The notes beneath the pieces were generated by a model. The model was not told where the DNA came from, did not search any database, and saw only the letters and a list, made by a program, of their open reading frames with translations. A program made the position numbers and the translations under genes. From positions 34,326 through 98,325 of the forward strand of contig JBEIPA010000020.1 of NCBI GenBank assembly GCA_040377305.1: 64,000 bases of DNA, given 5' to 3'. Positions 9,567 to 51,684 of this stretch are shown here, one piece after another. Source of the DNA: Flavobacteriales bacterium. Lineage in GTDB: Bacteria > Bacteroidota > Bacteroidia > Palsa-965. Numbering within the stretch: position 1 is the first letter of the stretch; each line of letters opens with the position of its first letter.

Positions 9567-11585
9567 TTAGAAATTATTCTTTTCGGGTAATTGTTTTGCG
9601 AAGTCAATCGTGAGTCCAAGCGTGAACGCACGTCCGGGCATTGGACGCCACGCAACAGATTGGTATTCTACATTGCCAATGTTGTTGCAACGCACAAATA
9701 AATTAATCTCGTAAAATTTCGGATACGCTTTCTTGCGATAACACCAGCCAATAGCCGCATTGCCGATTGAATATGCAGGAAGCCATTCGAGATGGTCACG
9801 TGTCGTGAATCGAAGATCGTTGTACTGTTGAGAATATGTTGCGAAGAAACTCTTCCACTCTACTGTGAACGATGCACCACCGAACCACGCGGGAACGTAA
9901 ATGAGTTGTTTGCCCAAAGCAACATCATTCGGATTGTCCGTCTTCTCGTACGTCGACCGAACATAGTCGGCATTCGCGGTGAAAATGATACGCGTTTGAT
10001 TTGTGAATGTTCTAGCTACACGCAGACGATGCTCAATTCCTCTGCTCCACACGGCGGCAACATTCACCGGACTCCAATACGAAGCATGAGGAACCCACGT
10101 AATCATGTTGACCACGTTACGATTGTAAACCGTTGCACTGTAATTAATTTTCCAGGGATTCTTATTGAAGCTCAACGCCGCAGTCAGTTCTTCTGTCCAT
10201 CCTGTTTCTGCTTTCAGGTCGCGATTTCCTCCCGGTGCCCAATACAAATCGTTGAACGTTGGAACACGATAGTTGTGCGACACACAAGCTTTGAGATTTA
10301 ACCAGGTTTTCAAGAACAACGAATACCAAATGCTTCCAACCGGTTCCACAGGTTTACCATCAATAATTTCTTCGCGAAGCATGATGCTGAATTCATCGTA
10401 CTCTCGTAAAAACTTGTTGTATGACACATACACACCGGCACGTATCTGCTCGTGATGAACAATGAACTCCGTAACCTCTGAAGAAGCCCAGTTACCCGTT
10501 ATTCCCGCACCAACAAATGACTGGTTGGATAGTTTATTCCTCCGATAACCGAGATATTTTTTCACGCTCGCTTCAGAAATAACGGTCCACGCATTTGTAT
10601 TGCTGATTGGCGTGCTGAATCCTGCGTCCCACAACAAGCCTTCGTGAATTACAGCGGTGTGTGCATTGACAAACCATCCGTCGCGATTATAACTCCACTG
10701 TGCAACTGAACGCATTGCATAATCGCGCTGCACGGCTTCGTTAGAAGTTTGCAACATGGTTGGTGCAATTTCACGACTGGTTTCCTGTACCCACATGCGC
10801 ACGGAGAAACTGTGATACATGCTCGGAGTCCAGGAAGCGCTTGTCATGAATCCCTGCTGAAATGTAGCGGCGTGCTTAAGTGTGTCGAGCGGATGTGTAT
10901 TCGATCCCGGACTCGTTAGCACAGCGAAATTCGTGAACGTATAGTTGTTCTCTGCCGTTTGACGATACACGCGCAGATCGAAATCCCATCTCTTAGTGCC
11001 GTATCCGATTTGAACTCCATTCAATAATGTGCTGAAGCTTCCATACTCGTTCACTGTGCGCGCGCGGAAGTACGGACGCGCTAATCGTGTTCCGTCAAGT
11101 ATAGTTGGAGTTGTCCACGAGTTCACGCGAATCACACCACCAATTGCACCATTTCCCCAGGAAGCAGAAGAACTGCCGGGCTCAACAGAAACGCCGTCGA
11201 ACAGAAAAACAGGAATGAGTGAAAGATCAACGGTATTGTTGTTGATGTTCTGGAGATTGACTCCATTCCACAACACCGGAGTTTGCATGGAGTTTGCACC
11301 ACGTATCGCAACTGTTGAGAGGGCACCCGGTCCTACTGACTTCAACGCAACAGTTCCATTGCCAAGCAAATCAGAAAGAGTTCCTGCTGGATATATTCTT
11401 GCGAGTGTTGAATCCGTTACATCTCGTCGCGTTCCGTTCTGAATAATGCGAACGGTTTGAACAATATCGACAGAAGACATTTCGTGATGAAACGCAACTG
11501 TATCGATACGATGCAATAATGAGTCCTGCGCACTAAGCACAACACAGAACAGACAGAATAATACTGTTGCGACCTTTTTCATCAC
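9567..11585 (-). CDS. btuB: TonB-dependent receptor, BtuB-like cobalamin transporter
   Basis: Plug motif IRG...VLWNG; RVPTFNDLYW; RPMPGR near C-terminus; downstream of cobalamin riboswitch. Confidence 0.85.
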   Translation of the reverse strand: MMKKVATVLFCLFCVVLSAQDSLLHRIDTVAFHHEMSSVDIVQTVRIIQNGTRRDVTDSTLARIYPAGTLSDLLGNGTVALKSVGPGALSTVAIRGANSMQTPVLWNGVNLQNINNNTVDLSLIPVFLFDGVSVEPGSSSASWGNGAIGGVIRVNSWTTPTILDGTRLARPYFRARTVNEYGSFSTLLNGVQIGYGTKRWDFDLRVYRQTAENNYTFTNFAVLTSPGSNTHPLDTLKHAATFQQGFMTSASWTPSMYHSFSVRMWVQETSREIAPTMLQTSNEAVQRDYAMRSVAQWSYNRDGWFVNAHTAVIHEGLLWDAGFSTPISNTNAWTVISEASVKKYLGYRRNKLSNQSFVGAGITGNWASSEVTEFIVHHEQIRAGVYVSYNKFLREYDEFSIMLREEIIDGKPVEPVGSIWYSLFLKTWLNLKACVSHNYRVPTFNDLYWAPGGNRDLKAETGWTEELTAALSFNKNPWKINYSATVYNRNVVNMITWVPHASYWSPVNVAAVWSRGIEHRLRVARTFTNQTRIIFTANADYVRSTYEKTDNPNDVALGKQLIYVPAWFGGASFTVEWKSFFATYSQQYNDLRFTTRDHLEWLPAYSIGNAAIGWCYRKKAYPKFYEINLFVRCNNIGNVEYQSVAWRPMPGRAFTLGLTIDFAKQLPEKNNF

Positions 11586-12093: not shown

Positions 12094-12229
12094 AACAAAC
12101 ACCGCTCTGCATTTTCATTCGCCGACCCAAACTTTTTTGAACTTAAACGTTTGTAAACGGCTTAAGTTATTTTCATGTTTTATGTTTGCAACATATCAAT
12201 AATGTTTTATCATTTAATCTTAAATTTTT

Positions 12230-12691
12230 ATGGCTAACACTTATTCAAAAATTTACCAGCACGTAGTTTTCGCCGTGCGCAATCGTCAGGCTCTTATCAC
12301 AGAGAAATTCGAAACTCCGATGTATGAATACATGAGCGGCATCGTAACTAATCAAGGACAAAAACTTCTGATTGGAAACGGTCATCACGACCATGTGCAT
12401 TTGCTAATGACTTGCAAACCTACCTGTTGTCTTGATCAGGTAGTTCGTGAAGTAAAAGAACACACAACGAAGTTCATCAATCAGAATCGTTTGGTACCCG
12501 GAAAATTTCAATGGCAAAATGGTTACGGTGCATTTTCCGTAGGGCATCAGAATCTTGATATGATCTTCAACTATATCCGAAAGCAAAAAGAGCATCACAC
12601 CACTGTAAAATTCCGGGAAGAGTATTTGCAGCTACTGAAAGATGCGGCAGTGGAATACGATGAGAAGTACATCTTTGACGAACTCGTCTAA
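12230..12691 (+). mobile_element. tnpA: IS200/IS605-family HUH Y1 transposase (TnpA/RAYT-like), no tnpB
   Basis: HVVFAV, DHVH (HUH), WQNGYGAFSV, YIRKQKEHH (catalytic Tyr, YxxxQ). Confidence 0.92.
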
Positions 12692-44441: not shown

Positions 44442-45545
44442 ATGAAGGTTATTACATGCACATTATTCGTCCTGGCATTTACTCTAACGTCATTCTCCCA
44501 AGAAACCTTTGAGGTTGCTGATACAAAATTCACCGTTCAGTGCCCGGTTAATTACTATGTATTTGACAAGAAGAATGGATCTAACCCTGAAGGAGGATTG
44601 TCCAACGTTGTATTCAAATCAAATAAGTTCGATGAGTGCAGTTATTCAATTATCGGGTTGCAACTCGTCAATACGAAAATCCAACCTATTCCGCATAAAA
44701 AAAGATCCGCTAAAGTTCTTGAAAGCTCTGCGGGTTACGTAGGTGTGGGAGCATATCAATGTTTCTATTTTAGCAGCAAGCAAAAATCGAAGCGCAAGTG
44801 CAATAATTTGCATTATTACGCATCATTCAGCCACAGAATAAATGATTCTTTAGATGTGAGAATATTTCTAACGTCTGTGGCACTGGAATCGGAAATCAAT
44901 TACCTCGACACAATTCTCCGAACGCTCGCAGATAGCTTCTTCATTGTCAATAATTACTTATTGGAATCACTTAAACCAGTGCACAGTTTTAATGGTGAAG
45001 ATTCAATATCAATTCTTAATAAAGGATTCTACTTTCCACTAATACCAGGTTGGGGCGTAACTAAACGGCGCGCGGAATTCAACGATGAAAATGATCCAAC
45101 GGGTAAACGTCTTGTAATTCAAGAAATACGTGCTAAAGCAATCAGCTCGTGTGCCATAACATTTACCGTAACCGATATGACATTTACTAAACAAGATGAA
45201 TTAAACTATTTTCTAAATACCCGAAACAGATTGCCGAATAGTGGCGAGCGTCCCATGTTTGCAGTTCGAACAGATTCAATTCAAAAAAACTGCGAAGCAA
45301 ATGGCTTTGATACTTTATCTGCTTGGGGGTTGATTCGGAAGGATGTGAATGGCGAAGCAAAACATTTCTACGCTTATTACTATTCTTACTTTTTCATGAC
45401 CACAAAAGGTATGTTTAGGGTAACGCTGGAATTTGTTGCACCGATCTCAGATCCCCTGCAGGCTTCGTTCAAGGGTGAAGAGTTTCAAGCATACTGTGAT
45501 GATGTTTTAAAACAAAATAATTTCAAAAAATGGATGGTTCATTAG
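44442..45545 (+). CDS. hypothetical exported protein, paralog 1 of 3
   Basis: Signal peptide; FYFPLIPGW motif. Confidence 0.7.
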   Translation: MKVITCTLFVLAFTLTSFSQETFEVADTKFTVQCPVNYYVFDKKNGSNPEGGLSNVVFKSNKFDECSYSIIGLQLVNTKIQPIPHKKRSAKVLESSAGYVGVGAYQCFYFSSKQKSKRKCNNLHYYASFSHRINDSLDVRIFLTSVALESEINYLDTILRTLADSFFIVNNYLLESLKPVHSFNGEDSISILNKGFYFPLIPGWGVTKRRAEFNDENDPTGKRLVIQEIRAKAISSCAITFTVTDMTFTKQDELNYFLNTRNRLPNSGERPMFAVRTDSIQKNCEANGFDTLSAWGLIRKDVNGEAKHFYAYYYSYFFMTTKGMFRVTLEFVAPISDPLQASFKGEEFQAYCDDVLKQNNFKKWMVH

Positions 45546-46789
45546 TACGAGGAAAATTTGAATTGGCGAGTTTGATTGTCACTGTTGCAGCTATGTTCGG
45601 CTCAATTTCGGCGCACTCACAACGTATTGATTCTCTACGAATTCTTGGACAACCTTTTGAAATTGCAGTTCCTTATGCATGGACCGCGAGCCGTGTTGAT
45701 ACGGGTTTATGTAAACAGGATGGATTTAACATTCGTCTTGATATGCCGATTTCAGATTACAATTGCGGTGGACACATCACCGTTAAGGCAACCGCAGTTA
45801 CTCCGGAACTGCGAAAGGAGCGCGAGAACAGGGTTCATGAACCAATCGAAGACAGCCTTTTCGCTGCATACTATCGTACAGATATCGGAAACTATACACT
45901 CAACTGCGGATTTGTTGAACAAAAGGGAGGAAAAGACCCCCGGCCGGTCAATAAGGCCGACAAACCAGCCTACCAGAAAAGAAAGAGAGAATTATATAAA
46001 GACCCATCCCATTTGTACACCACGTGGTTGTTCTATTCAATCAACGATACAATTGAGTTTCTGATTCTGTTTCAGGGAAGAGTTCCCCACAGCTATGAAC
46101 AATTTGCAGATCATGCTGTGAGACACATTGCAGAACACATTTTCATTGAGGATTCTACTTCAATTAAGACATTAACCGATGTAACAAATCCCTTTCGTCA
46201 TGAACCTGAACAGCTACCGATGGATTCCGTGACTTTTCTTAAAACCAGCTTTAAATTTCCACTCTTACCGGGCTGGTCTTATGATACAACCAGAACTGAA
46301 TCAGAGCGAAAGACCGTTTTTCTAAGGGTTAAATCTCCGAATCGCGAAGGTTGTGATAAAGGCAATATTGTATTATCCTATCGCGTCAGAACAGTAGATG
46401 ACAATACTTCTAAAAAAGATGAACTATCGAAGATTACATTGGAAGGAATTTACAAGCAGTATAAACCACTTATGCCAAAAATGGATTCCAGTGAAATCCG
46501 GAAGATCGACTCAACATTTGCAACCTATGAGCAACATTTCTATTTCACACAAGCAGGGAGTAGTTTCCCTGCTCCCCTTTGTCCGGAATACGAAGAAGTG
46601 AATGAGGTGCTATATATTATCATTTACACTTCACCCAGTGAACGAATACGCATTGAAGTGTCAACGACATACACCGGCTATGATTACCAAAGCGCCCGCG
46701 AATACAGCCATCAATATTATCGGTTCATTTATCTCATGGCAGAAGCAAATGACTTCGAACAGTTTTATCTGAACAACAAAAAGGACTGA
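45530..46789 (+). CDS. hypothetical exported protein, paralog 2 of 3
   Basis: Signal-like N-terminus; FKFPLLPGW motif. Confidence 0.7.
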   Translation: MDGSLVRGKFELASLIVTVAAMFGSISAHSQRIDSLRILGQPFEIAVPYAWTASRVDTGLCKQDGFNIRLDMPISDYNCGGHITVKATAVTPELRKERENRVHEPIEDSLFAAYYRTDIGNYTLNCGFVEQKGGKDPRPVNKADKPAYQKRKRELYKDPSHLYTTWLFYSINDTIEFLILFQGRVPHSYEQFADHAVRHIAEHIFIEDSTSIKTLTDVTNPFRHEPEQLPMDSVTFLKTSFKFPLLPGWSYDTTRTESERKTVFLRVKSPNREGCDKGNIVLSYRVRTVDDNTSKKDELSKITLEGIYKQYKPLMPKMDSSEIRKIDSTFATYEQHFYFTQAGSSFPAPLCPEYEEVNEVLYIIIYTSPSERIRIEVSTTYTGYDYQSAREYSHQYYRFIYLMAEANDFEQFYLNNKKD

Positions 46790-46791
46790 AA

Positions 46792-47889
46792 ATGAAGAAA
46801 CTATTTCTGCTTTTCATATTCATCAACCTGTTTCAATTCTCGAATGCACAAAAAGCTGCGAATGTTGATACGTTCACTATTGCGGGAGCGAATTTTGTGG
46901 CAACAACGCCTGCCGATTGGTTTTCCCTTTCAGTCAACGATAGTATTCAGAAAGATACCACGTGGAATTACAAAATGTGGTATGCTCCGGACGTAAACTC
47001 TAATGCCGTTTTCGCTCAGGTCTGGATTCACGTAATCAACAATACTGATTATGTCCCAACAAAGAAAGAGAGAAAGAAATTTGAACGGAGATGTAAAGTA
47101 TCTCAAAGAAAAATAGGAAACTGGCCCTGTTATTTTCTCAATTATGAAGGTCAGAAGATGAAAGACTGCCGGAAATGCAAATTAGTTTATCAGCAGCTCT
47201 ATTCTGTTCCATTAAATGCAAAGCAATCATTAGAGATATTGTTTGTTGGGCAAGGAGATTGGAACAAACTTTATCCGCTAAGTAAAACGTACGCTCAGTT
47301 TGCGGAAAATTTTATCCGAACCAATGATCAGTCGCTTTCCACTTTTCGACTTATTAATTTCTACATGCCCGTGACCACATATAACATAAACGTTGGTCAA
47401 ACTTATTCCAAAGTCCTGATTCCAAATGGATTTACCTTTCATGATCTTACGAATGGAAATGCCACTATCACGGGTAAACAAATGACGATACACATTAACG
47501 CGTTGACTCAGATTAAAGATTCAACTGCAATTCAACAGAAAATAGATACAAATGTTAGTATCGTCCCGCTGAAAACATATTCATTTCTGTCTGGATCTGC
47601 TGTTGCTAAACTCGTGACGCAACGTAGTCTTCTCGCAAATGATGGAAGTTGGATACTGTACAAATTTTCAATGGACATTCCACAAGCCGATGCAGCTATG
47701 TTGGAATATTACAAGTGTCTTTTGAGTGAATATGCAACATACACCACCCAACATCAATTAGATGCATCCAACTCAATTCCCGCAATTAATTTACAGGACA
47801 TCGATCCTCGAAAAAACAGTAAGCCCAGAAGTGAAGGGCCCGCTCTGAATATTGAAAGAAAAAAAGACCAGTTACCCCGACCGAAATAG
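46792..47889 (+). CDS. hypothetical exported protein, paralog 3 of 3
   Basis: Signal peptide MKKLFLLFIF; TPADW and VLIPNGF motifs. Confidence 0.7.
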   Translation: MKKLFLLFIFINLFQFSNAQKAANVDTFTIAGANFVATTPADWFSLSVNDSIQKDTTWNYKMWYAPDVNSNAVFAQVWIHVINNTDYVPTKKERKKFERRCKVSQRKIGNWPCYFLNYEGQKMKDCRKCKLVYQQLYSVPLNAKQSLEILFVGQGDWNKLYPLSKTYAQFAENFIRTNDQSLSTFRLINFYMPVTTYNINVGQTYSKVLIPNGFTFHDLTNGNATITGKQMTIHINALTQIKDSTAIQQKIDTNVSIVPLKTYSFLSGSAVAKLVTQRSLLANDGSWILYKFSMDIPQADAAMLEYYKCLLSEYATYTTQHQLDASNSIPAINLQDIDPRKNSKPRSEGPALNIERKKDQLPRPK

Positions 47890-48035
47890 ATTTGAAAATT
47901 CAGCCGAAATAATCTCAGATCACGATTGGAAGATTATTCCTTGAGAAAAACAGTCATTCGTTCAATCTCCGGCTAACACCAAACACAATCGGCACATTGG
48001 CACATTGGCACATTGGCATCGGCATAGGCACATCC

Positions 48036-48122
48036 TTACGGACGCTTTTTCAACTCCACAACCAGCTCCTGCATTAGTTTTCCGCGTATCCCTTCCTTCG
48101 CCAACTTATTCGCTTCAGTATC
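48036..48122 (-). pseudogene. displaced duplicate 3' end of the GH3/serine-hydrolase gene
   Basis: Encodes DTEANKLAKEGIRGKLMQELVVELKKRP*, versus DTEPNKLAKEGIRGKVMSELVIELKRGKK* in the intact gene. Confidence 0.88.
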
Positions 48123-48130
48123 TGTTACTG

Positions 48131-48397
48131 TTATGGAAACACCTTGTAAATATCCTTGCGATGCAGAATCCGCACAAACTCCACTGTATCTGTTGAAATA
48201 AACATTCCAACCCTGTAGTCTCCAATTCTCAGACGGAATGCATTCTTGTGTCCGGATAACTTCTTAATGTTCGGATGATTTTTCAAAGTAGAAGCTCGCT
48301 CCACGTCCTCAATAAATAACTCCAATATTCGTCGTGCTCCCTTATTGGAAACAGAATCCAAATCCTTTGAAAACTTCTTCAGGAAAACAACCTGCAT
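48131..48397 (-). CDS. relE: RelE/ParE-family type II toxin
   Basis: F.KDL, IKKLSG, FRLRIGDYRVG, LHRKDIYKVFP. Confidence 0.9.
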   Translation of the reverse strand: MQVVFLKKFSKDLDSVSNKGARRILELFIEDVERASTLKNHPNIKKLSGHKNAFRLRIGDYRVGMFISTDTVEFVRILHRKDIYKVFP

Positions 48398-48398
48398 G

Positions 48399-48596
48399 TT
48401 ACTTCCGTAGCTTCTTGAGAATTGAAGCTTTCGATACCGTCTTCTTACGGTCAACACCTTTCATCAATTTACTCAATCCAAAGTCTTCCATTTCCTCGCG
48501 CGTGTAGGTAACGGCAGGAAGACCCAGTGATTCGAGAAAATCATTGATCAACCGAAGTTCGGACTTGTCTCTTGGTGTAATTACGAACGATTTCAT
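48399..48596 (-). CDS. cognate antitoxin
   Basis: 65 aa directly upstream of the toxin; EEMEDFGL..LM...VS. Confidence 0.8.
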   Translation of the reverse strand: MKSFVITPRDKSELRLINDFLESLGLPAVTYTREEMEDFGLSKLMKGVDRKKTVSKASILKKLRK

Positions 48597-48669
48597 TAAT
48601 CAAATTTACAAAAATCTATTCCTAACACCTAACACCATCTGCAAATCAGCATATCTGCTCATTCGCAAA

Positions 48670-51600
48670 TCATTTTTTCCCGCGCTTCAACTCAATAACT
48701 AATTCACTCATCACCTTTCCTCTAATCCCTTCCTTCGCCAACTTATTCGGCTCGGTATCCGGATAAACTCTGTTCGACAGAAACACAAACACCAATCCGG
48801 TTTCAGGATCTGCCCAGGCTTGTGTACCGGTGAAGCCCTGATGACCGAAACTCGCACAGGAAATTGAATCGACTGCTGCATCGGGTTTCTTCGGATCCGG
48901 ATCTGGCTTGTCGAAACAGATTCCGCGACGACAATCTTTCATGGCGTAACCAGTGAAGTCATTAACCGTTTCCGATTTGAAGTAACGTTTGCCGCCGTAT
49001 GTGCCCCCGTTGAGATAAAGCTGCATCATCACGCCCACATCATTTGCGTTGCTGAAGATTCCTGCGTGACCACCTACTCCACCCAACATGGCTGCACCTT
49101 GATCGTGAACATCGCCTTGAAGTTGTTGCTTGCGCCATTTGGTGTCGTTCTCGGTTGGAGCACAACGCGCACTTGCAAAACGCAAACGAGGCTGATAACC
49201 CATCGTGGTCAGTCCGAGCGGCTTGTAGAAATTCTGCATCACGTATTCGCTTTCACGCAGATTGCTTTTCTCTTCGATAATTTGTTTTACGTAGTAATAT
49301 CCCAAATCGCTGTAGAGATACTTGTGATCAGGATTCACATTGCACGCATTAATCTTCTTGTAAATACTGTCGTGATAATGTGCCTGTATCCACATGTTGG
49401 GTGCTACGTAAAACGGAAATGAATCTGTACGCGTTTTGTTGTAGACTTTCGTATCCCAATTTCCATTGGCGTCCAACGTTTTCTCGTAGAAAGGAATCCA
49501 TGCGGGAAGTCCAGCTGTATGCGTCATCATATTGCGGATGACCATGTTCTCCTTGTTGGTGTTCTTCACCATGGGAAGATGTTTACCAAGCGAATCACTG
49601 AGCTTAATCGTGCCGTCATCAACCATCTTCATCAAACTCGGAGCAGACGCCATGATCTTGGTCACCGAAGCAACGTCATACAAATCCATGTTGTTCACCG
49701 CGTGCTTCTTCTCGTACGTGAAATGACCATACGATTTCATGAGAAACACTTTCCCGTCTTTCGCAGCGAAAACCTGACAACCAGGATACGCTTTGTCTGC
49801 AATTCCTTTGTTCACGATGGAATCAATACGCGCCAATGTCTTCAGACTAAATCCGATTTCCTCGGGCACCGTGTATTTCAACCGCGATGAAACAGTTGCG
49901 ATTCCTGTCTGTGCCTTCCAACCATTCAACGTAACGGGCAGATTTCCCTGACAAGAAATTCCACCGAACACAGCTTGCGCAGCCAGATCTTCGATGTACG
50001 ACTGATCTTCATAAGCCTGAATCACCGCGTCACACTCTTCTATGCGCTTGATTTCATTCAACGCATAAGGTGAACCGAACAACACTGCAACAATTTTCTT
50101 ATTCAGCTTCAGTAAGGTGTCAATGAGCTTGTCGGGAACATCAGAGAGTCCGCCGTAATTGTTTGCCGGACGTTGAGACACTTTGTGAATGGCCATTACA
50201 ATTACATCGTGATTCGACAGATACGCAATCATGGAATCGATGGAATCTTTCTTTGCATCGTATGGAATTGCGTATGGTTTCACCGGTGCATAGTATGAAC
50301 TACGTTCCTGGAACATGTTATTTTTTGAATGTCCGACAGAAACAACTGCGAGATTCAGTGTATCCAGATTGGTTAGCGGCACCAATGAATTTTTGTTGTT
50401 TAAAAGTGTCATCGAGGCTTCTCCGATCTCCCGGCACAACCACTGTGCGTTACGGTCGTTCAGTGATTCAAATAAACCCTTTGACTTAAGACGCTTGCGC
50501 TTGTCTAATCCAACCCATTTTTTTGTCGCGAGAATCTTTTTGCAACGAAAATCGATTTCCGCTTGTGAGATTTCACCTTTCGTAATTGCTTCCTGTATGA
50601 GTGTAATTGCCTTCGGAACATCGCCGGAGAAAAGAATGACGTCGTTGCCTGCTACTAATGCTTTCACATCCAGTGCGCCCGGACCGTAATACTTACTTAC
50701 GCCTTTCATGTTCAACGCATCGGTAATCACGAGTCCTTTGAAACGCATTTCCTGTTTGAGCAATGTATCGACTACGTATCGCGAAAGTGTGGTTGCCTGA
50801 TTCGCTGTTGTGTCAAGCGCCGGAATGTACAAATGCGCTACCATCATACTTCCAACTCCTGAACGAATCATTTCACGGAAAGGATAAAGCTCCAGTGAAT
50901 CCAATCGCTCACGTGTTGCGTTGATTTGCGGAAGTGTCTTGTGCGAATCGGAATCTGTATCTCCATGTCCGGGGAAATGTTTTGCACAAGCGAGAATGCG
51001 GTTATCCTGCAAGCCATTTGAATACATGATCGCTTTCTCGGCAACATCGTATTTGTTTTCTCCGAAAGCTCGAGTTCCAATCACCGGATTATTCGGATTG
51101 TTGTTCACGTCAGCAACCGGAGAAAAACTCACGTTCACTCCAAGCAGACTGCACTGACGAGCCATTTCTACTCCGTACCAATACACCAGTGAATCATTGT
51201 CCATTGCACCGAGCTGCATCTGATGCGGGAAGTTGATGCAACTGTCAATGCGCATCACCGGTCCCCACTCTGCATCCATTCCAATAAGCAGCGGAACTTT
51301 TGCTTCTCCCTGATAACGATTCGTGAGATTCACTTGTCGCACCGGGCCGCCTTGCATGAAAATGAGGCCACCGACTTTCTGCGTTTTGATGAGCTCTGAA
51401 ATTTCGTTTTCGTGTTTCTTGTCTTTATTCGACCACGCAGCGACCATGAATAACTGACCTATTCTTTCTTCGGGTGTCATTGAATTAAAAACAGAATCCA
51501 CCCATTTCGAATTCGTGTCGTTGAGAAATGCAGGCGCCACAGCAAGATCAAACTTGTTGATTTGTGCAGGCGAACGATCCGGATCATCGGCATATGCGTC

Positions 51601-51684
51601 TTGCCGATCAAAAGCCAACAGCACGAACACCACGATCATCGGGATAAACAGAAGGAGGGAAAAAGAGATTTTTCTAATCATCAC
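48670..51684 (-). CDS. GH3 beta-N-acetylglucosaminidase fused to a beta-lactamase-like serine hydrolase (NagZ-AmiE-like)
   Basis: DAEWG, KHFPGHGDT..DSH, ITDALNM; ASVTK (SxxK), YSD, GHAG, FGHQGFTGT. Confidence 0.92.
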   Translation of the reverse strand: MMIRKISFSLLLFIPMIVVFVLLAFDRQDAYADDPDRSPAQINKFDLAVAPAFLNDTNSKWVDSVFNSMTPEERIGQLFMVAAWSNKDKKHENEISELIKTQKVGGLIFMQGGPVRQVNLTNRYQGEAKVPLLIGMDAEWGPVMRIDSCINFPHQMQLGAMDNDSLVYWYGVEMARQCSLLGVNVSFSPVADVNNNPNNPVIGTRAFGENKYDVAEKAIMYSNGLQDNRILACAKHFPGHGDTDSDSHKTLPQINATRERLDSLELYPFREMIRSGVGSMMVAHLYIPALDTTANQATTLSRYVVDTLLKQEMRFKGLVITDALNMKGVSKYYGPGALDVKALVAGNDVILFSGDVPKAITLIQEAITKGEISQAEIDFRCKKILATKKWVGLDKRKRLKSKGLFESLNDRNAQWLCREIGEASMTLLNNKNSLVPLTNLDTLNLAVVSVGHSKNNMFQERSSYYAPVKPYAIPYDAKKDSIDSMIAYLSNHDVIVMAIHKVSQRPANNYGGLSDVPDKLIDTLLKLNKKIVAVLFGSPYALNEIKRIEECDAVIQAYEDQSYIEDLAAQAVFGGISCQGNLPVTLNGWKAQTGIATVSSRLKYTVPEEIGFSLKTLARIDSIVNKGIADKAYPGCQVFAAKDGKVFLMKSYGHFTYEKKHAVNNMDLYDVASVTKIMASAPSLMKMVDDGTIKLSDSLGKHLPMVKNTNKENMVIRNMMTHTAGLPAWIPFYEKTLDANGNWDTKVYNKTRTDSFPFYVAPNMWIQAHYHDSIYKKINACNVNPDHKYLYSDLGYYYVKQIIEEKSNLRESEYVMQNFYKPLGLTTMGYQPRLRFASARCAPTENDTKWRKQQLQGDVHDQGAAMLGGVGGHAGIFSNANDVGVMMQLYLNGGTYGGKRYFKSETVNDFTGYAMKDCRRGICFDKPDPDPKKPDAAVDSISCASFGHQGFTGTQAWADPETGLVFVFLSNRVYPDTEPNKLAKEGIRGKVMSELVIELKRGKK

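Follow-up and report, generated by a model that had tools for sequence, protein, structure and literature searches.

A toxin–antitoxin pair between two diverged copies of a host gene end in a Flavobacteriales genome

Analysis of a 64,000-nucleotide stretch of contig JBEIPA010000020.1 (hereafter the window, numbered from its first letter) from the Flavobacteriales bacterium assembly GCA_040377305.1 revealed a small toxin–antitoxin (TA) pair directly behind a gene for a cell-wall hydrolase of the GH3 family. The pair lies between the end of this gene and a second, diverged copy of the same end. The features of the locus, starting from the host gene, are as follows (aa, amino acids; nt, nucleotides).

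48670..51684, minus strand: intact host gene of 1004 aa with GH3 N- and C-terminal domains and a beta-lactamase-fold (serine hydrolase) domain
48670..48759, minus strand: in-gene tail (copy 1), the 29 final codons and the stop, which would have arrived with the TA pair
48725..48749, minus strand: 25-bp core, the same in copy 2 (48088-48112) and in the TA-free relative L058 (25/25)
48622..48669, no strand: octamer/heptamer tract behind copy 1, belonging to a genome-wide dispersed repeat
48601..48608, minus strand: TAAATTTG, match to the Bacteroidota sigma-A -7 box and predicted promoter of the TA pair
48399..48596, minus strand: predicted antitoxin of 65 aa, with a weak RelB-like match below the cut-off
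48131..48397, minus strand: ParE/RelE-family toxin of 88 aa
48123..48130, minus strand: spacer of 8 nt from the toxin stop to tail copy 2
48036..48122, minus strand: downstream tail (copy 2), 28 codons and the stop without a start codon, presumably the former working end of a GH3 allele
47973..48035, no strand: octamer/heptamer tract behind copy 2
44442..47889, plus strand: three unannotated secreted-looking proteins (367, 419 and 365 aa) in the variable region that separates the GH3 and glyoxalase genes

The two tails align without gaps (48049-48122 with 48686-48759, 77% identity over 74 nt, spacing 637) and their translations read DTEPNKLAKEGIRGKVMSELVIELKRGKK and DTEANKLAKEGIRGKLMQELVVELKKRP. 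The insert between them comprises 547 nt with two open reading frames (ORFs). The G+C content is 39.7% in the insert and 46.1% in the host gene, but genes on the other side have a value of 39.6% as well. A preliminary description of this DNA had placed a TA pair between two copies of the gene tail, and both the coordinates and the content were confirmed, as was the identical 25-bp core, the longest identical run between the two tails. The repeats had been put at 140-150 bp; the coding tail of 87-90 nt is indeed duplicated, but the octamer half is a repeat dispersed over the genome. The octamer/ctaacac tract gave blastn matches on many other contigs, and genome-wide 40 tracts of at least three units fit a simple pattern. 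Hence, the duplication specific to this locus covers about 90 nt, not 150.

The toxin matched PF05016 (ParE_toxin) with 35 bits at a cut-off of 23, and the antitoxin matched the RelB-like PF18506 with 19.8 bits, under the cut-off of 27. The toxin most likely starts with the ATG at 48397, giving 88 aa as in three relatives, and not with the GTG at 48457. Throughout the four TA-bearing genomes presented below, the antitoxin gene stands upstream of the toxin gene with a stop/start gap of 1 or -1 nt. By domain and gene order the pair would be classed as a type II TA system of the RelE/ParE superfamily, with predicted toxicity, neutralization and post-segregational killing. Both genes are under purifying selection, with proportions of synonymous (pS) and non-synonymous (pN) differences of 0.54-0.98 and 0.09-0.20, respectively. 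The TAAATTTG motif lies 4 nt before the antitoxin ATG in 4/4 of these genomes. The Bacteroidota sigma-A box sits at -12 to -5, according to PMC9723704, and the placement of TAAATTTG predicts a promoter of its own and a leaderless messenger RNA for the TA pair.

The toxin is 72-81% and the antitoxin 71-82% identical to the copies of three relatives at the same site; other homologues of the toxin in the family, at different sites, reach at most 58% identity. Flanking repeats were absent around related TA pairs elsewhere in all nine loci with both flanks (12 loci, three of them without a flank). One of the homologues (L048, G010:C13) has a broken toxin and lies beside a 423-aa ORF, the C-terminal residues of which look by eye like what we take to be an integrase motif. 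Two related toxin genes with 55-58% identity (L042 in G030 and L045 in G017) occupy another common site with a similar neighboring ORF pair, where the one locus with both flanks showed no flanking repeats.

The GH3 gene ends were compared in 32 genomes. The unpublished genome G012 contributed one row to the TA-free, toxin-homologue, mutase and mpl counts and none of the conclusions depends solely on it; G001 was excluded from the trees because of non-letter characters. The TA pair was found at exactly this site in 4/32 genomes: G000 (this genome), G007, G013 and G015. Three of the four also have the second tail, G015 carrying the TA pair without it, and none of the 28 TA-free alleles has both tails in the 0.45-1.5 kb or more that was covered. 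A search of 35 family genomes for a second downstream match to the last 120 aa returned only G000, G007 and G013. The metagenome pattern scan provided seven loci, one G013-like and six TA-free with a single tail, two of the latter being identical in the printed stretch. In the comparison of orthologous loci proposed in the preliminary description, a single tail copy was seen in 28 TA-free congeners and six metagenome loci, none of the same species; the one close strain, X2, has the TA pair.

The second tails differ in extent: that of the window measures about 75 nt, that of G013 107 nt and that of G007 216 nt. Their start is separated from the toxin stop by 8, 11 and 0 nt, respectively, and lies about 87, 123 and 228 nt before the stop in the three genomes. 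No sequence in common follows the toxin stop across the four genomes, where an integron gene cassette would carry its attC hairpin with conserved core and inverse core, and no remnant DNA was seen between the TA pair and the tails in any of them. The second tails of G007 and G013 are most like the gene of their own genome (0.88 and 0.91), with lineage-specific residues in common. Since the second tail is nearest to its own gene in these two genomes and the junction positions differ, each lineage must have made or refreshed the duplication separately. The downstream tail of the window is 0.73 identical to its own gene and 0.82 to the TA-free L058 (over 78 nt).

The distribution of differences between the tails was then compared with that expected under duplication in place followed by neutral decay, in which third positions take up at most about half of the differences. 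The tails of G007 differ by codon position as 2/2/22 (p=3e-4), and on the downstream branch, polarised against 10 relatives, 15/19 changes are third-position (p=6e-5 vs one third). Between the tails, pS/pN was 0.47/0.03 in G007, 0.29/0.04 in G013 and 0.70/0.12 in the window; most differences between the copies are thus synonymous. Because of this synonymous excess, both tails were once working gene ends in different lineages, and two functional, diverged tails therefore make the structure a merger of two alleles, one with the TA pair and one without. These comparisons support recombination between alleles and reject a simple in-genome duplication. The idea of a homologous tail from a related lineage stands in so far as the tails come from different functional alleles; the in-gene tail would be the incoming copy, with the proposed swap of the C-terminus, only if the TA pair was the incoming piece.

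The search for other duplicated 3' ends, also suggested at the outset, covered ORFs of at least 250 aa (n=2641) with a short copy of the last 35 residues within 6 kb downstream. Such a copy was found for 17/2641 ORFs with cargo varied or absent, in comparison with 2, 3, 0 and 0 in the controls (tail upstream, head upstream, head downstream and middle downstream, respectively). The pattern is real and beyond chance. Removal of three likely tandem paralogues (C7:29305, C17:7306, C30:111625) and addition of the contig-edge case C50:1859 left 15 loci; C50:156585, with a repeat beneath a shadow ORF, was dropped. The duplications in these 15 loci span 39-245 nt with 72-98% identity, and their pooled codon-position differences amount to 46/27/130. 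The hosts include genes for an mpl-like Mur ligase, recG, methylmalonyl-CoA mutase, a P-type ATPase, an ABC ATPase, YceG/MltG, RsmF and an HI0933 protein. ORF cargo is present in 9/15 loci (a second ParE/RelB pair, a Y1 transposase-like gene, a 2OG-Fe(II) oxygenase, large secreted proteins and membrane proteins), in two of the nine antisense to the host gene, and the other six have short repeats only. In the seven co-oriented cases, the second tail lies -4 to 53 nt from the cargo stop (3, 41, 21, 8, -4, 53 and 12 nt).

Four of the cases illustrate this range. The second ParE/RelB-like TA pair (L060, G000:C43, ~9595-10300), also present in run X2, lies antisense to the mpl-like Mur ligase gene, flanked by tail copies of 84 nt with 98% identity, and the final codons of the host gene overlap the toxin end. 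The recG end (L061, G000:C11, 142400-142900) is repeated in at least three tandem copies with 165-nt spacing and no cargo; the copy in the middle is chimeric between those on either side, hence the repeats recombine. At L062 (G000:C52, 172400-173400), a Y1/IS200-like transposase gene lies between two tails of the methylmalonyl-CoA mutase gene. Homologues of this transposase gene stand near the mutase end in 8/25 congeners without a clear second tail, and the in-gene tail is the better match to the nearest cargo-bearing relatives (0.86 vs 0.75 for G015, 0.82 vs 0.76 for G007). A 1490-aa secreted protein is encoded at L063 (G000:C22, 20240-25250) between 245-nt copies of a metallo-beta-lactamase-fold gene end, the first ~190 nt of which are near-identical and the last ~55 nt divergent, as predicted by a tail swap.

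Other genomes gave few parallels. No tail duplication was seen in 22 orthologue loci of five other genes, where differences of a few percent pointed both ways and gave no direction, and the 25 mutase loci contained no clear case (one borderline score). Among 23 mpl loci, only G016 has a tail duplication (L132/L148, G016:C17, 271600-273200), its own, in which 101/113 nt are identical and the cargo is a different gene, antisense, of 258 aa and unknown function. Since the same pattern occurs with varied cargo or none, addiction is unnecessary for making the structure. The self-standing, addiction-driven element of the preliminary description was not upheld, as the same architecture holds non-addictive cargo or none, G015 has the TA pair without a second tail, and related TA pairs lack flanking repeats.

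No integrase was found among the 60 window ORFs scanned, or nearby, as had been stated. The genome encodes seven tyrosine recombinases, none on this contig. The only mobility-type gene found in the window is a Y1_Tnp gene at 12224-12688 (IS200-like or associated with repetitive extragenic palindromes), 36 kb away. A retro-element inserting complementary DNA was rejected, as the genome (99.99% complete) has no PF00078 reverse transcriptase and 2/9 cargo cases are antisense to the host gene. Inspection of 14 junctions by eye gave no common motif; a 7-nt match between the toxin end and the GH3 gene in the window is not repeated in G007 or G013 and was discarded as a junction motif. The three junction positions in one gene do not fit a fixed att crossover site, with later erosion possible. 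The 25-bp core is a plausible crossover stretch but may also be simply conserved; being identical in TA-free L058, it is a conserved stretch and a possible site of cross-species crossover.

Of the readings considered, we regard as fairly probable that the TA pair entered from a related lineage on a short DNA bearing the same GH3 gene end, by host recombination and without an integrase. The incoming piece would have consisted of the TA pair and the GH3 gene end of the related lineage, and host recombination at the common gene end would have inserted it, leaving the gene with the incoming tail as its end and with its former tail behind the toxin. The route could have been RecA-type, through either a single crossover with a small circle of tail and cargo or a linear fragment joined by homology at one end and without homology at the other; either way, the stop-proximal part of the gene would become the donor's. 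DNA uptake would serve as the entry route (the genome has one ComEC gene), and addiction would only help to retain the insert afterwards. The TA pair is likely to be the incoming piece, this being the most economical, if unproven, reading. Observations behind it are the two coding-evolved tails, the toxin-flush junction, the lack of an integrase and the recurrence in three genomes and about 14 genes of this genome. Also, in the tail tree the in-gene tail of the window pairs with TA-bearing G015 (85/86), whose TA pair is the closest too. Homology-facilitated illegitimate recombination, reportedly described in 2002 by de Vries and Wackernagel and by Prudhomme et al., is said to capture DNA in transformation through one homologous anchor and a non-homologous joint. 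It is said usually to delete recipient DNA; our locus, in contrast, has gained a duplicate of recipient-type sequence, and its joint is flush with the stop codon.

Several results weigh against this reading. Random illegitimate joints offer no explanation for junctions flush with the cargo stop codon, and the synonymous divergence of the tails (0.3-0.7) is high for efficient homologous recombination, unless much of it arose later or recombination went via the short conserved core. The significance of the codon test comes from G007 and the pooled loci, the tails of the window (7/2/12, p=0.33) and G013 (0/2/5, p=0.23) being too short for it. Along the GH3 gene, sliding identities to 11 relatives revealed no clear switch of the kind that a mosaic breakpoint would leave, and the grouping of L058 with the downstream tail lacks SH-aLRT support (80/0). 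The four-taxon TA tree, (G000,G015),(G013,G007), agrees in its branching with the GH3 tree, and vertical inheritance with losses would fit this equally well. Only 5/8 cargo-bearing mutase alleles favor the in-gene tail. Finally, the contigs of four runs showed neither an empty site nor a circle or skipped junction at two loci (this one and the mpl TA site), contigs being prone to drop rare forms.

A more far-reaching version, a general, integrase-free "gene-tail homing" in these bacteria, is a tentative possibility at best. Cargo trimmed flush to its stop codon would move together with the end of its host gene. The spare tail would act as a landing arm into any empty allele, regardless of the downstream DNA, and would be refreshed from a working allele at each entry. 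A gradient of damage toward the junction (more broken codons close to it), which homing with an inherited junction would predict, was rejected (33 vs 41 position-1/2/gap differences and 64 vs 78 third-position differences, p=1.0, 15 loci in strict alignments).

The TA pair might instead be an old resident of the GH3 locus, with the tail and downstream DNA of a TA-free allele as the newcomer, with a non-homologous joint directly behind the toxin and a homologous one farther along. Had the replacement been clean, the loss of the TA pair would have killed the cell. On this reading the host gene would have kept its own C-terminus. We consider this unlikely. The tree congruence fits it, as does the divergence of the TA pair, of the same order as that of the GH3 gene (nt identity 0.68-0.77 and 0.76-0.82, respectively), and so do the TA pair of G015 without a second tail, the long branches of the downstream copies in the tail tree and the variation of the downstream region between relatives. 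However, a match between four-taxon trees has a one in three chance, and this structure is also found around non-addictive cargo or with no cargo at all. In G007 the second tail has nothing new behind it but is followed directly by the glyoxalase gene, as in the TA-free L054, L055 and L059, and repeated loss of the TA pair would be required in L056, L058 and others.

Quite improbable is a remnant of an integrase-driven element, i.e., a prophage, an integrative and conjugative element or an integrative and mobilizable element, or a non-autonomous cassette moved by a trans-acting site-specific recombinase, with the tails as attL and attR. The geometry is identical to that of e14 with icd and icdC (PMC13626634), and loss of transposases leaving TA-only islets was proposed in PMC13617665. 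The 25-bp identical core, the tyrosine recombinases elsewhere in the genome and the processed look of the stop-flush junctions point the same way. Against it stand the absence of an integrase from the contig and the window ORFs, the three junction positions in one gene, the roughly 14 unrelated target genes without a common junction motif by eye, the absence of leftover DNA in all four genomes and the conservation of the core in TA-free relatives anyway.

Even less probable is duplication of the tail within the genome, by slippage or by tandem duplication and loss of the second TA copy, with later divergence and perhaps allelic overwrite of the gene copy. The proximity of the second tail to its own gene in G007 and G013, the near-identical tandem tail arrays at recG and C50 and the young cases with 93-98% identity would agree with it. 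The purifying selection on the downstream copy, clearest in the third-position changes of G007, contradicts it, and pN lies far under pS/2 in all three genomes. Translation of the spare tail by read-through, a candidate source of such selection, was rejected since the copy is not translated in a conserved way: there is a stop in G007, two deletions with frameshifts in G013, and the frames relative to the toxin differ.

A chimeric assembly of two strains has a negligible chance: the two tails resemble two alleles and the genome was probably assembled from a metagenome, but contamination is 0.53%, one contig of run X1, possibly the source, spans 47989-50500 and both tails with zero differences and even depth (14.4, flanks 14.3), runs X2 and X4 of another study link the TA region to the in-gene tail (48187-48727 and 48567-48763), and G007 and G013/L053 have the same architecture. 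The toxin/second-tail junction is spanned by no listed piece from an independent run.

The surroundings of the locus deserve a short description. The three secreted-looking proteins at 44442-47889 are co-oriented, with 40% G+C, and gave no Pfam or NCBIfam match; homologues with 24-37% identity occur at the site in relatives in variable number, from zero to a few. Type IX secretion tails are present among the window proteins, as fits a member of the Bacteroidota. The gene end at 48670-48760 has G-rich and C-poor third codon positions (13 G and 1 C in 25 codons), with about 0.28 G and 0.27 C in third positions of the gene body; the bias occurs also in G013 and, weaker, in G007. Such a bias may favor cross-species matches at gene ends.

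By analogy, the closest known counterpart is the insertion with long target duplication of restriction–modification genes (Furuta, Abe, Kobayashi 2010, PMC2853133), a known kind of event whose mechanism is unsolved. In that paper, as here, a small selfish gene pair without a mobility gene is flanked by a direct repeat of variable length (>30 bp) that runs across the stop codon and keeps the target gene intact, and amplification proceeds through the repeats. The direct repeats measure 74-87 nt at our locus and, in G013 and G007, 107 and 216 nt, respectively, and the insert of 547 nt, without other mobile-element genes, is well below 20 kb. The cargo there is restriction–modification, and toxin–antitoxin goes unmentioned in the text available; with a type II TA pair as cargo, the DNA-break trigger proposed there is missing. 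The repeats of the two integrase-free examples in its Table 2 are 44/46 identical, in contrast to 77-91% with synonymous bias here (98% at the mpl TA site). Here, moreover, the same site is used in three lineages and the pattern occurs also without cargo.

Prophage e14 in icd (PMC13626634) likewise supplies a gene 3' end and leaves a C-terminal fragment, icdC, at its far end with mostly synonymous differences, and its loss makes a chimeric gene. That element is a 15-kb prophage with site-specific excision, unlike the insert of 0.55 kb with no recombinase and variable junctions. Solitary chromosomal type II TA islets (PMC13617665) also consist of TA genes only, lie beside core genes without mobility genes and are patchy. 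They are explained there by lost transposases and flanking homology (recombination at core genes). Two-arm allelic replacement of this kind leaves no duplication, and neither "direct repeat" nor "target site" occurs in the text available. More distant analogies are found in PMC3784515 and PMC3967940. The rhs main gene with orphan C-terminal fragments (PMC3967940) resembles our locus in the displaced downstream fragment, able to recombine back; there the variable C-terminus is the toxin and serves diversification, whereas our locus has the conserved end of a housekeeping gene as its tail and a separate cargo. A literature search returned no description of TA pairs enclosed by diverged copies of the end of a host gene, most subscription journals and supplements lying outside its scope.

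The locus offers a small test case of 0.6 kb with one target gene, three natural repeats and both filled and empty alleles in one genus, and the 3'-only tail copy with synonymous-biased divergence is a signature searchable genome-wide. If gene-tail homing were true, any housekeeping gene end would be an attachment site, and the flush junctions would point to a processing step by the host or a trans-acting factor. If the entry from a related lineage is true, the last 15-80 codons of conserved genes would be swapped between species as a by-product, gene trees would be misled, and gene ends would be general capture sites.

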